From sequence record LR999871: a stretch of DNA of 64,000 nt; one strand, written 5' to 3'. The notes below the pieces were generated by a model. It was not told the DNA's origin and ran no database searches. It saw only the letters and a list, made by a program, of their open reading frames with translations. This document shows positions 9,771-20,273 of this stretch, piece by piece. Numbering within the stretch: position 1 is the first letter of the stretch; each line of letters opens with the position of its first letter. A program made the translations under genes and the position numbers. This DNA is from Escherichia phage vB_Eco_Jura.

Positions 9771-12700
9771 TTAGTGGGTAAGGTTGAACCAAGGATTGAG
9801 GGTTGGTGCTCTTAGTCCTTGTCCGAAGCCTAATGAATAATCCAGTCTTCCTTCAGCCAGCATGGTTAACATGTTGTCCTGAATTGGTAGACCTACATTA
9901 CCAAACATGGCAGGAGCAGGTACTACTGTAGCAATCAGAGAATGTACTGGATTGTTTCTAATCATGCTCATAGCAACTTTAATGGAACGAATCTTAAAGT
10001 TGTAGAACCACATCAGACCCATGCTTTCCATATAACCACGGAAACGACCAGGCAATCTGTCATAGTTAACAAACTCTTCAGTTACCTGACCCAATGCTTC
10101 AGAAGAAGACTTCTTCTTACGTTTCACTAAATCATCGTAGATGATGGCTTTAGCAATGAAGTCTGAATACTCTACTGTTTTTTGGATACCCTGGAACAGA
10201 GCAGTGTCCTTAGCAATAAGAGCATAACGGCCAGCATTACGTACTTTTTCTGGAAGTTTATTAGCAAGTTTTTCCATGTACTCATGAATCTTACCTTCAG
10301 CTACTAACAGGTCATCACGACTAATACCAGCATCAGCAATAGAAGAAAACTCACCTGCTTCAATCAAAGGCCAGATGCTCATACGACGATGGCTATCAGT
10401 AATAGATTGAATCTCAGTTTTAAGTTTACGAACCAGATTAGGATTACCTTCAGCAGCGCGTAATTCTGCTTCTGCATCAATCTGACGTAAGCGAGATTTA
10501 ATGTACTGATTAATCTCTGACGTCTTACGAGGAATGTTCACAGCAATATCTTTAACAGGAACACCACGTCCAATCATCTGGTAGATGTTAGCAAGGAAGT
10601 TAACTGCCGGTACTACAACAGATTTAACAACAATTACTGTCTTAGCATCCTTCACCAAGTTCTGAATGGTATTTTCAGCATTCATTACTACATGATATGC
10701 CTTATTACCAAATGCACCGAGGAACATCTTCTTAACAGTATCAAGGGTGCTAGGTGACCAACGAGAGTTACCAGTCCATACATCACCAATAGATGCAGCA
10801 CGATAGCCAAGTGCATCATTCAGCATATCCCTACGAACCCATAACTCATCCTTACCAAAGAGTTCTTCAGCCTTACGACGAGTCTCAATGTTCATCAGGT
10901 TAATTGCATCAGCCAGTACTGGGTCATCAATTTTACCTAACAGGTTTACATATTGAGATTTATTAGCACTGGAGTCTTTAATGTCTTTCTCATACATAGC
11001 ATGTAATTGCTCAATGAGAATGTCATTAAAACGTTGTGCTTTAGCCTCTTCCACCTGACGACCACGCCATACACCCACCATCTTAGCAAAATGATTGTCT
11101 TGGTTTAGATGCTTCAACATATTAGGGTCAACGGATTGCTCATAAGCAACTACCTGACCTTTGCTGTTATAAATTGGCATCAGTGGTTCACGCCCACGTT
11201 CACCTTTAGCCAGAGCTTTGGTAATACGCTCTACGGTTGGTTTGTCAGTAATACGACCAGCAACCATAGTACCTAACGTAAAGCCAGTACCAATATCCAC
11301 GCCACCAGCAGTATTACGAACGTTCTGAAGAATACCTTGAGAGTATGGAGCACGGGCAGCTACTGGGCTGAAGTAATAACCTTTAGAACCAGTACGGAAA
11401 CCAGTGCTTCCCTGATAAGTACCAATACGAGTAAAGGATTGGCTATTTAACTTAGCAAACTCTTTATCGTCAGCAATAATCAAATTCACACCTTGCTGGT
11501 TCTCTACAGGGATATAGCCCTTAAAGTGATTCAACAGAGTACGGTTATCACCTTTAGCTTTACGCATCTCTTCAGTACGTTGACCCACCATATAAGCAAT
11601 GGAGAACTCCATACCTTCCACTTCTGATTGAGCCAATTCTGACAAAAGGTCACGGTCAGACTTATTCATCAATTCCAGAGAGTACAAAGTAGTGAGCTTA
11701 TCAATAGCAGCTACATCTGCCACAGGACTATTAGTAATACGTTCACCTAACAAACGACTAATAGCATGGGCATTACGAAGGAGGTTATTACCTACTTCCC
11801 CTGTAATCATGTATTGAGCCAGTTGCTTAGATTTCTTCTGAACCAGATTCCAGTTTCTACCTGCTTGGTTCTGAATCTCTTTTTCCAGAGTAGAGATTTC
11901 ATCTTTCACTTTCTTGGATGAAGAGAGTAAATCTCTAATTTCAGCCATGCTCATAGTTTCACGTAGAACAGCTAAATCTGTTTTACCTAAACCAGTATGC
12001 ATTGCAGACCACTCGGTATCAGTCAATTTACGAGAGAACTTACCAGCAATGACTGTAGGTAAATGCTCACGGAATTGTTGACGGTCTTGAGAAATCTGGC
12101 TCTTAACCAATTTGATTAAGTCATAGACATTGGCATTAGTCTTAGTACGACCAACAATGTCATTAACTAAGTCATGGAAAGGTTGCCATACTTTACCCTG
12201 GTTCATAGCAGTCATAACACCCTGAGCCACTATTTCACCTTGTTTTTCAGATGCAATAGCAGCAGTCAGTTTAGCCAGATGAGCAACACCTTTAGCAGCT
12301 ACATTAGAAGGGTTAGCAATTACCTTATCTGCCTTTTCAATAACAGTTTCAGATAACCGTTCAATGCTATCCATTACGTACTGATTAGCACGGTCAATGA
12401 AGTTACCGGTAGGGGTTGCTACAGCATCATAGAAGGACTCTCGTTTCAGAGCAGCAGCCATGATTGTTTCTGACAGAGCATCAATACTATCCTGAACATT
12501 AGTAGCCTTCTGGTCACCCGCCATACGACGGTTCAGAGATTCCATTACCTGAGTACCTGCATTGGTAAGCAGAGTATCTACATCATTCCCTAATTTCTTA
12601 TCTGCTTTAGGTACAGGCATTTCTTTAATGATTGAACGTAGTTCTTCATTAACCATAGCCAGACCCAGGAATGTAGGTAACAGACTGGTTCTGCCTTTGG

Positions 12701-20273: not shown

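Follow-up and report, generated by a model that had tools for sequence, protein, structure and literature searches.

On sequence grounds, the 10.5-kb open reading frame (ORF) on the minus strand of Escherichia phage vB_Eco_Jura (LR999871; 9771-20273) is the gene of a virion-encapsidated RNA polymerase (vRNAP), the ortholog of N4 gp50, in an Enquatrovirus that is an N4-species-level coliphage. At 10,503 nt, this single ORF fills 16.4% of the window, the whole 64,000-nt stretch of DNA analysed here, and the preliminary description of the stretch, which had proposed a giant virion RNA polymerase gene covering about 16% of it, was right on both counts. Taken as a whole, N4-type vRNAP identity and mechanism, with a proposed hairpin-based regulation, form the best explanation of the data, and we regard this overall reading as highly likely. 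Work on N4 vRNAP goes back more than 40 years, and a near-full-length structure was published in 2026. The gene finding is correct but ordinary and already known; the sole modestly new point is a conserved cassette in the spacer before the gene, a spacer as conserved as coding DNA.

The ORF listing reads the frame from a TTG (minus strand, 9771-20291; 3506 aa), and an open frame of 3506 codons has a chance probability of about 1e-96 (41.4% GC; stop probability 0.061 per codon). Translation of 9771-20273 yields 3500 codons and a TAA stop (9771-9773), begins with MSVFDRL and contains no internal stops. Both the ATG start codon (minus strand, 20271-20273) and the Shine-Dalgarno sequence AGGAA eight nucleotides before it (20281-20285) are invariant in 15 cassette variants; the ATG gives the same N-terminus as in the PDB and N4 sequences, and the 3500-aa form is used by all public N4-type records and PDB entries. 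The in-frame TTG (20289-20291) lies six codons upstream of the ATG, within a non-coding block that does not vary among relatives. The TTG start is spurious and the ATG start giving 3500 aa is correct, as had been proposed together with a good Shine-Dalgarno sequence.

Comparison with N4 gp50 revealed 99.2% amino acid identity over all 3500 residues (27 of 3500 differ, without indels) and 97.9% nucleotide identity. Residues 1-3500 match PDB vRNAP chains of 3500 residues with 7652 bits (phmmer), and PDB entries 11fw and 9pnr cover residues 1008-3500. Four vRNAP-specific Pfam domains—vRNAP_dom_2 (residues 1324-1440), vRNAP_plug (1456-1538), N4_RNAP_helical (1616-1832) and vRNAP_dom (1914-2058)—were detected with E-values of 1e-22 to 3e-97, far above cut-offs. 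Nucleotide identity across the whole gene is 97.9-99.3% in 15 Enquatrovirus genomes, and the length of 3500 aa compares with 3342 to 3595 aa in eight distant vRNAPs. N4 gp50 itself (NC_008720, 34523-45025; PDB 2PO4, 3C2P, 9PNQ, 9PNR, 11GP) has the same length, domain order and motifs, and its genomic neighbours and flanking terminators are as in vB_Eco_Jura. The 27 substitutions are conservative to moderate, with six clustering in a 100-residue linker, and a functional difference from N4 gp50 is not expected.

Outside the linker, the substitutions relative to N4 comprise 188 synonymous and 21 non-synonymous changes, indicating strong purifying selection. This ratio argues against the notion that the ORF is a non-functional vRNAP, either a decayed copy or another giant virion protein with a polymerase-like relic, and so do the complete lack of stops or indels relative to N4 gp50 and the intact state of all catalytic residues. 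Refuted by the full-length PDB match, the N4 alignment and the invariance of the catalytic residues, this alternative retains a negligible probability.

Within the N4-type vRNAP, alignment to the N4 protein placed the mini-vRNAP core, a T7-like single-subunit RNA polymerase domain, at residues 998-2103 (minus strand, 13965-17282), consistent with PDB and Pfam matches: PDB 2PO4, 3C2P and 3Q0A align from residue 997/998 to 2101-2103, and residues 1-1104 of 2PO4 match the core. The T7-like motifs occur in the order TxxGR, A, B, C, all in the central third of the protein, in keeping with their earlier placement in its central part. On the minus strand, these are TRVGR (residues 1417-1421; 16011-16025), motif A YVEADGVTNGP (1552-1562; 15588-15620), motif B RGIAKNPLTITIYG (1663-1676; 15246-15287) and motif C KIFDGMN (1945-1951; 14421-14441). 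R1421, the catalytic D1556 of motif A, R1663, K1667 and Y1675 of motif B, and the catalytic D1948 of motif C are invariant in the nine vRNAPs compared, which represent eight lineages. The residues D559, K670, Y678 and D951 (mini-vRNAP numbering, to which 997 is added), reportedly mutated by Kazmierczak et al. 2002, presumably correspond to individual motif residues identified here. The TxxGR motif has been described (PMC4496689), as have mutational analyses indicating that the catalytic functions of the T7-like motifs are conserved in vRNAP (PMC4496689).

The remaining domains, all read from the minus strand, follow boundaries published for N4 (PMC13434306). The N-terminal domain (residues 1-906; 17556-20273), whose limits were transferred by ungapped 99% identity, includes residues 224-278 (19440-19604), predicted membrane-spanning helices in N4 (PMC13434306). 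The low-complexity linker (907-1006; 17256-17555) carries 6 non-synonymous and 0 synonymous changes relative to N4, compared with 21 and 188 in the rest of the gene. C-terminal subdomain C1 (2124-2375; 13149-13904) contains an HExxH motif, HELVH (2228-2232; 13578-13592), with H, E and H invariant in the nine vRNAPs; this motif was rejected as a new observation because it is reported already (PMC13434306). Subdomain C2 (2376-3500; 9774-13148) belongs in N4 to the C-terminal domain that autoinhibits the polymerase (PMC13434306).

The individual steps of the infection mechanism have been shown in N4 (PMC4496689, PMC13434306), and for the vB_Eco_Jura copy we infer them from 99.2% identity. The gene would be expressed late, and 4±1 copies of the 383-kDa single chain would be packed into the capsid. 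At infection, vRNAP would follow the ejected gp52 and gp51 out through the tail, with the N-terminal domain anchoring it at the inner membrane and the flexible linker of ~100 residues acting as a tether. The T7-like domain (998-2103) would recognise DNA hairpins that supercoiling by gyrase extrudes at three early promoters and that host SSB stabilises; vRNAP would transcribe the early genes without host polymerase, and transcription would also help to draw the genome in. The C-terminal domain, comprising the HExxH-bearing C1 and the helical C2, would dock on the polymerase and dampen it allosterically. For N4, presence of vRNAP in virions (PMC13434306) and rifampicin-resistant early transcription are established, and mass spectrometry has detected vRNAP in virions of phage CB1; virion presence, ejection and rifampicin-resistant early transcription for the vB_Eco_Jura enzyme are what we infer from 99% identity to N4.

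The published determinants of the early promoters are a 5-7 bp DNA hairpin whose 3-nt loop reads G-R-A on the template strand, a heptamer rich in GC, an A-ruler and +1C (PMC4496689), and three plus-strand sites in the window fit them. A P1-like hairpin, GTTGC-TTC-GCAAC followed by TTAT-GG on the non-template strand, lies at 45492-45504; a P2-like hairpin, AAGAAGC-TCC-GCTTCTT followed by TT-GG, at 45959-45975; and a P3-like hairpin, AAGCTGC-TCC-GCAGCTT followed by TT-GG, at 49948-49964. The 7-bp stem and template-strand loop GGA of the P2-like hairpin are as described for P2 (PMC4496689).

The vRNAP gene is the last of a leftward block that runs from 44142 down to 9771, with a gene order collinear with N4 gp43-gp54 and with phage AL25. 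The genes gp53-gp52-gp51-gp50 are co-directional and convergent with the replication/SSB block, an order kept in eight distant schitoviruses. Directly upstream of the vRNAP gene on the minus strand lie the gp51 ortholog (644 aa; 20374-22308; collinear with N4 45126-47060) and the gp52 ortholog (150 aa; 22319-22771), recognised by synteny and with its role taken from PMC13434306. Downstream, a bidirectional terminator hairpin, GCCCCTC-ACTA-GAGGGGC (9745-9762; -13.7 kcal/mol), separates the vRNAP stop from a convergent gp49 homolog; the terminator scan picked it up on both strands, and AL25 carries three terminator annotations there. The gene had been placed at the distal end of a late operon: its terminal position holds, and the block, a putative single operon, contains several further terminator-like hairpins. 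Similarly, a hairpin does separate vRNAP from gp51, but gp51 and gp52, taken beforehand for structural proteins, are now known as ejection proteins acting jointly with vRNAP (PMC13434306). The N4 virion holds 12 copies of gp51, 12 of gp52 and 4±1 of gp50 (PMC13434306), in agreement with the supposed low copy number of the polymerase.

At the gp51|gp50 junction, the minus strand carries an intrinsic-terminator-like hairpin, AAAAGCCC-UUCG-GGGCUUUU plus UU, at 20337-20358, separated by 15 nt from the gp51 stop, a TAA. It comprises GCCC-UUCG-GGGC lengthened by four A-U pairs and followed by a total of six U, and folds with -10.6 kcal/mol; with its GC-rich stem-loop, U-tract and intergenic position past a stop codon, it has the sequence properties of an intrinsic terminator. 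This is a genuine hairpin whose conservation extends far beyond N4, and the span first given for it (20337-20355) takes in the GC core and the T-tract. Direct folding, the AL25 terminator annotation and a scan of homologous spacers all support it, and minimum-free-energy and consensus folds present it as an independent hairpin that no alternative pairing disrupts. A simple terminator scanner did not report the hairpin, probably because extension of the stem through A/U pairs leaves too few tail T.

The hairpin is nearly invariant across four Enquatrovirinae genera. Among eight distant schitoviruses, seven show a terminator-like hairpin at the same junction, with a stem-loop and T-tract just past the gp51 stop; in all eight, the gp53|gp52|gp51 junctions measure <=13 nt and the gp51|gp50 junction always 66-109 nt. 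Two independent annotators have marked terminators at this junction. The stem lacks covariation since it never varies, and its conservation could therefore equally reflect a DNA-level role.

The element is palindromic and reads as a terminator on the plus strand too, with T-runs on both sides. The AL25 annotation places it on that record's plus strand, the opposite strand, and middle transcripts of LUZ7 and LIT1 cross late gene cassettes in the antisense direction. These features suit a function unrelated to gp50 dosage, in which the hairpin would stop plus-strand antisense transcription passing from the vRNAP gene into the ejection and structural genes or stabilise the 3' end of gp51 mRNA. 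We consider such a function improbable: the minus-strand T-tract is longer and uninterrupted (TTTTTT, compared with TTTTGTATT on the plus strand), the T-tract of distant phages follows the stem in the vRNAP-sense direction, and rightward transcription is already kept out of the vRNAP gene by the bidirectional terminator at 9745-9762.

The spacer as a whole is identical to that of N4 and retains 74-86% identity across genera, versus 56-64% for the adjacent 3' end of gp51. A second hairpin, IR2 (UUACACUA-GGUA-UAGUGUGA; minus strand, 20310-20329; 8 bp, -7.3 kcal/mol), retains a stem of 5-9 bp in each of 12 distinct variants, and three stem positions show double (compensatory) changes when pairs are counted with TAnAGT as the anchor. 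MAFFT and RNAalifold under-call this helix because the loop lengths differ.

The 5' leader further contains a 12-mer, GATATAAGTTTG (minus strand, 20289-20300), which includes the spurious TTG and is identical in 15 of 15 variants from four genera. It occurs once in the window, where near-matches stay at chance level (6 found, 9.3 expected), and a role as a repeated late-promoter motif was accordingly rejected. The 12-mer might act as a -10-like or leader element, or as a site for a protein or an RNase. An IMG/VR scan with the 12-mer plus the Shine-Dalgarno sequence returned 49 loci, including ~20 N4-type cassettes; the other loci, cyanophage psbA coding sequence and further chance matches, were discarded. 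The literature searched does not describe the cassette of terminator, IR2 and 12-mer.

Action of the upstream hairpin as an attenuator giving separate dosage control, suggested in the preliminary description, is an interpretation consistent with the data. Two intrinsic-terminator hairpins would bracket gp50, and at the upstream one (20337-20358) a fraction of the late transcripts made by host RNAP most likely ends. Such partial termination would leave gp50 covered by fewer transcripts than gp51 and gp52, in line with the 12:12:4 ratio in virions. IR2 and the invariant 12-mer in the 60-nt leader would probably add mRNA-stability or translational control. We tentatively propose, as a reading somewhat short of an even chance, that the gp51|gp50 spacer may serve the whole family as a dedicated ejectosome dosage module, in which a terminator kept at this position across Schitoviridae, together with the Enquatrovirinae IR2 and 12-mer, would set a gp51:gp50 ratio of ~3:1 both transcriptionally and post-transcriptionally. 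In the N4-like phage LUZ7, late operons take their shape from leaky terminators, and the vRNAP gene was captured in no operon. For N4 and close relatives, the literature searched yielded no transcript-end data at the gp51|gp50 junction, and for N4 itself neither gene 50 transcript maps nor late-promoter sequences. As a counterpoint, packaging rather than expression may determine the number of copies in the virion.

A further counterpoint is that the invariant leader elements could form a dedicated promoter, which would make the hairpin a full stop with no attenuator function. The hairpin would then be an efficient terminator of the gp53-gp52-gp51 transcript, and gp50 would have a late promoter of its own, weak and N4SSB-dependent, within the ~60-nt spacer, with the invariant TAnAGT in the 3' arm of IR2, or TATAAG inside the 12-mer, as the candidate -10. 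The invariance of TAnAGT and GATATAAGTTTG across four genera fits this arrangement, and the ~35-65 nt between terminator and ATG in every schitovirus examined leave room enough for it; N4 late promoters have been described as weakly sigma-70-like and activator-dependent, and the late region of LUZ7 contains 33 scattered late transcription start sites. However, a sigma-70 consensus scan of the minus strand at 20274-20373 gave nothing, and no recognisable -35 lies 16-18 nt from either candidate -10. Moreover, other late genes lack an upstream copy of the 12-mer, so it is no general late-promoter motif, and the spacers of distant genomes share no promoter-like element. We view a dedicated gp50 promoter as rather unlikely.

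Returning to the proposed dosage module, its closest parallels are the late terminators of LUZ7 and of phage T7 (as cited in the LUZ7 paper), where a stem-loop and U-tract stand between co-directional genes needed in different amounts. Unlike those leaky terminators, the spacer here carries an extra conserved hairpin and an invariant 12-mer without described counterpart. If the cassette does tune a 383-kDa protein against its 12-copy partners, it would represent a compact form of stoichiometry control in a phage late region, and it could serve the engineering of N4-like therapeutic phages.

The protein itself shares with T7 RNAP and mitochondrial RNAP a right-hand fold, motifs A/B/C and (T/D)xxGR with the same catalytic roles. 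Unlike T7-like RNAPs, vRNAP is embedded in a 3500-aa chain, has a plug module, is packaged and ejected, recognises a DNA hairpin on a single-stranded template rather than a duplex promoter, and needs host SSB and gyrase. As ejection proteins, gp52, gp51 and gp50 resemble T7 gp14/gp15/gp16 and the phage DEV ejectosome, being ejected in order before the DNA to form a trans-envelope conduit; in contrast to those systems, the third protein, gp50, is fused to an active RNA polymerase and a regulatory C-terminal domain.

The closest vRNAP gene sequences are those of vB_Eco_AL25 (OW991345) and vB_Eco_SPSP (OV049961), with 99.3% nucleotide identity. The AL25 protein differs at 21 amino acids, and genome coordinates agree with vB_Eco_Jura up to 7388. 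Relative to AL25, the vB_Eco_Jura window has a 127-bp unit twice (7389-7643), either a genuine duplication or an assembly artefact, and the extra copy displaces the vRNAP gene by +127. On the plus strand, ORFs at 13398-13784, 17628-18044 and 19828-20136 lie inside the vRNAP gene; they are unannotated in N4 and AL25 and were treated as chance antisense ORFs.

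The virion RNA polymerase (vRNAP) gene lies in a single minus-strand reading frame that runs, in the ORF listing of the window, from a TTG at 20291 to 9771; translated from the ATG at 20273, it comprises 3500 codons plus a stop, with MSVFDRLAGF as the N-terminus. Its length of 10,503 nt (16.4% of the window) agrees with the single 10.5-kb ORF, about 16 percent of the window, of the preliminary description, and the chance of an open frame this long at the window composition (41.4% GC) is ~1e-96. The upstream in-frame TTG is situated six codons before the ATG, within a non-coding 12-mer unchanged in relatives, and a Shine-Dalgarno (SD) sequence, AGGAA (20281-20285, minus strand), stands 8 nt before the ATG. 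Because SD and ATG are both invariant among 15 aligned homologous spacers and the TTG falls inside the invariant 12-mer, the 3500-aa start is correct, which bears out the earlier view that the TTG is spurious and that the ATG has a good SD.

Residues 1-3500 match PDB chains named 'Virion DNA-directed RNA polymerase' (7652 bits), and four vRNAP-specific Pfam domains score far over threshold. The gene shares 97.9% nucleotide identity with N4 gene 50 and 99.3% with the close Enquatrovirus relatives vB_Eco_AL25 and vB_Eco_SPSP, is covered in full in fifteen Enquatrovirus genomes, and sits in a gene order collinear with N4 gp43 to gp54. Whole-length alignment to N4 gp50 revealed 27 substitutions and zero indels, confirming the proposed N4-type identity, and the mini-vRNAP core maps to residues 997/998 to 2101-2103 by alignment with crystal structures 2PO4, 3C2P and 3Q0A. 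The T7-like motifs, already placed in the central part, all fall within the central third of the protein: TxxGR (TRVGR, residues 1417-1421), motif A (D1556), motif B (R1663, K1667, Y1675) and motif C (D1948). These residues are invariant in 9/9 vRNAPs, even where identity across the polymerase domain falls to 23%; D1556, K1667, Y1675 and D1948 are taken to correspond to the individually mutated mini-vRNAP residues D559, K670, Y678 and D951, with 997 added to the numbering (Kazmierczak et al. 2002). The ORF corresponds to gp50 of N4, carried by a phage closely related to N4, with all family-defining features that can be tested in silico present. Mini-vRNAP carries these T7-like motifs, and mutagenesis shows that the motifs keep their catalytic functions (PMC4496689).

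The mechanism is taken from the literature and carried over to the window copy by near-identity; virion presence and ejection would likewise follow from N4 work. N4 vRNAP is a late product; each virion contains 4±1 copies of it, and its ejection follows that of gp52 and gp51, two 12-copy proteins that supply the ejectosome's outer-membrane and periplasmic sections (PMC13434306); the Jura enzyme would similarly be synthesized late, packaged in few copies and ejected after both proteins. The N-terminal domain (1-906), with membrane helices predicted at 224-278, is the inner-membrane anchor and is followed by a low-complexity linker of ~100 residues (PMC13434306), an arrangement that would tether the present polymerase in the same manner. 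A plug, together with the motif-B loop, keeps the polymerase domain inactive until the domain binds a promoter hairpin, which supercoiling by gyrase extrudes and host SSB stabilises (PMC4496689), and such binding would release the Jura polymerase domain from this inhibition. Docked on the polymerase, the C-terminal domain (C1 with HExxH, plus C2) has an allosteric dampening effect (PMC13434306), which it may exert here too.

Three plus-strand hairpins in the same window are targets of this vRNAP: early promoters of N4 P1 type (45492-45504), P2 type (45959-45975) and P3 type (49948-49964), each fitting the described N4 promoters. Each comprises a 5-7 bp stem and a 3-nt loop with template-strand G-R-A within a GC-rich heptamer, followed by a T-rich T/A ruler and a GG start, in exact agreement with the description of N4 promoters P1-P3 (PMC4496689).

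Conservation varied among the vRNAP domains. Linker residues 907-1006 (17256-17555, minus strand) carry 6 non-synonymous and 0 synonymous differences from N4, versus 21 and 188 elsewhere (Fisher p = 2e-6); selection on the linker is relaxed or diversifying, and the three folded domains are under strong constraint. Across eight distant vRNAPs (loci L059-L066), the C-terminal domain (residues 2124-3500, window 9774-13904) was more conserved than the polymerase domain in 8/8, for example in Axy12 (60.9% vs 56.2% identity), Piffle (52.6% vs 43.2%) and V13 (29.8% vs 24.2%), and its HExxH motif was invariant in the vRNAPs compared.

Both flanks of the gene carry terminator-like hairpins. Downstream, between the gene and the convergent gp49 homolog, lies a GC-rich 7-bp hairpin (9745-9762) that scores as a terminator on either strand. 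Upstream, the 100-nt spacer between the gp51 ortholog and the vRNAP gene folds into three hairpins (z = -2.3 vs shuffles). The one reported at 20337-20355 is present, its complete stem-loop plus T-tract spanning 20337-20358 (minus strand; -10.6 kcal/mol); with the form AAAAGCCC-UUCG-GGGCUUUU followed by UU, it resembles a textbook intrinsic terminator, and the depositors of vB_Eco_AL25 annotated a terminator at the equivalent position.

Spacers were aligned across four genera (Enquatrovirus, Kaypoctavirus, Gamaleyavirus and Moovirus), with IMG/VR contigs added through a pattern containing neither hairpin, giving 15 distinct variants in total. Among these the stem of the terminator scarcely varies, and the loop is mostly of UNCG type; the whole spacer is 74-86% identical to the window, a conservation equal to that of the first 150 nt of gp50, against just 56-64% for the last 120 nt of gp51. 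Beyond alignable sequence, we surveyed eight schitoviruses drawn from seven other lineages and infecting, among others, Achromobacter, Pseudomonas, Stenotrophomonas, Erwinia, Rhizobium, Ruegeria, E. coli and Salmonella. Their gp53|gp52 and gp52|gp51 junctions measure <=13 nt and the gp51|gp50 junction 66-109 nt in 8/8; in 7/8 a stem-loop plus T-tract starts <=~30 nt past the gp51 stop, the eighth, a Ruegeria phage, having an 11-bp hairpin without T-tract. Annotators of Piffle and Pollock independently placed terminators at this junction and right after the vRNAP stop. Together, these hairpins and annotations indicate that the vRNAP gene is bracketed by terminators across the family.

Between terminator and SD lie two further elements kept in the four genera: a second hairpin (20310-20329, minus strand) showing compensatory base changes, and the invariant 12-mer GATATAAGTTTG (20289-20300, minus strand). 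The second hairpin holds 5-9 bp in 12/12 distinct stem variants despite sequence change. Counting outward from its invariant ACT/AGT core, seven variants have C-G and five T-A at position -1, three have A-T and nine T-A at position -2, and 11/12 carry one of C-G, T-A and T·G at position -3; contiguous outward pairs average 4.2 with a variant's own arm vs 1.8 with another's. Since independent lineages are few (~five), this constitutes moderate evidence for a conserved helix. The consensus fold also contains a short stem exposing the SD in its loop, with informative covariation absent. It further places a 5-bp hairpin over the first vRNAP codons (20257-20271, minus strand), beginning at the G of the ATG: GUCAA-CAU-UUGAC in most relatives, and GUCAG-UAU-UUGAU in the window, retained through G·U changes. 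This hairpin could reduce translation initiation; its conservation is ambiguous because it lies within coding sequence, and informative covariation is absent here too.

The hairpin at 20337-20358 is a putative attenuator of gp50 dosage. Consistent with this are its conserved position and the drop in virion stoichiometry from 12 to ~4 across it (PMC13434306). Among N4-like phages, LUZ7 alone has a full-length transcript map; leakiness of most of its late terminators yields graded operons, which fits an attenuator, and its vRNAP transcript exceeded the length that could be captured; a literature search for 5' or 3' transcript ends at the N4 gp51|gp50 junction found none. In N4, host sigma-70 RNA polymerase with the activator N4SSB carries out leftward transcription of the late genes, vRNAP included (PMC4496689). 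The main rival is full termination at the hairpin, with gp50 then transcribed from its own N4SSB-dependent promoter in the leader. The invariant leader elements TAnAGT and GATATAAGTTTG speak for such a promoter, but a consensus scan of the spacer gave no sigma-70-like match, a plausible -35 is absent, and the 12-mer has no second copy in the window. The palindromic nature of the hairpin makes action on the opposite strand, or purely as an RNA stabiliser, possible; such a role is less likely, given that both the uninterrupted T-run and the hairpins of the distant homologs are oriented in the vRNAP sense. The spacer might be a dedicated ejectosome-stoichiometry module, a suggestion we regard as tentative and rather doubtful. 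We found no published description of the conserved three-part spacer cassette and family-wide terminator position, a result of modest scope.

Elsewhere in the window, between the gp47 homolog and a tRNA cluster, a 127-bp unit is perfectly duplicated in tandem (2.0 copies; 7389-7643, plus strand). The unit is single-copy in N4 and 14 close relatives, and its second copy explains the +127 coordinate offset from vB_Eco_AL25; the duplication could be a recent event or an assembly artefact. The unit has zero Rfam matches; when folded, it gives a hairpin that is both long and strong (146 nt, -49 kcal/mol, z = -4.3). The tRNA cluster (7700-8378, plus strand) encodes Asn(GTT), Ser(TGA), Thr(TGT) and Pro(TGG); the fifth annotated 'tRNA-Undet' of vB_Eco_AL25, in the Thr-Pro interval, was called in the window by neither ARAGORN nor Rfam.

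Sites resembling the sigma-70 consensus promoter are far rarer than in dinucleotide shuffles on both strands of 8500-43499 (12 vs 32.1 ± 5.6 and 20 vs 47.3 ± 7.1 expected), which would fit a late region needing silence until N4SSB is made. Terminator-like hairpins are enriched at 23.5-43.5 kb (31 vs 12.9 ± 3.6 in shuffles). Strong examples in the leftward block lie at 32659-32689 and 27080-27096 (minus strand) and at 29499-29541 (both strands), one of them with a 14-bp stem and one directly 3' of the 401-aa ORF 27114-28319, which probably encodes the major capsid protein. Because of these additional hairpins, the 'late operon' probably consists of several nested transcription units.
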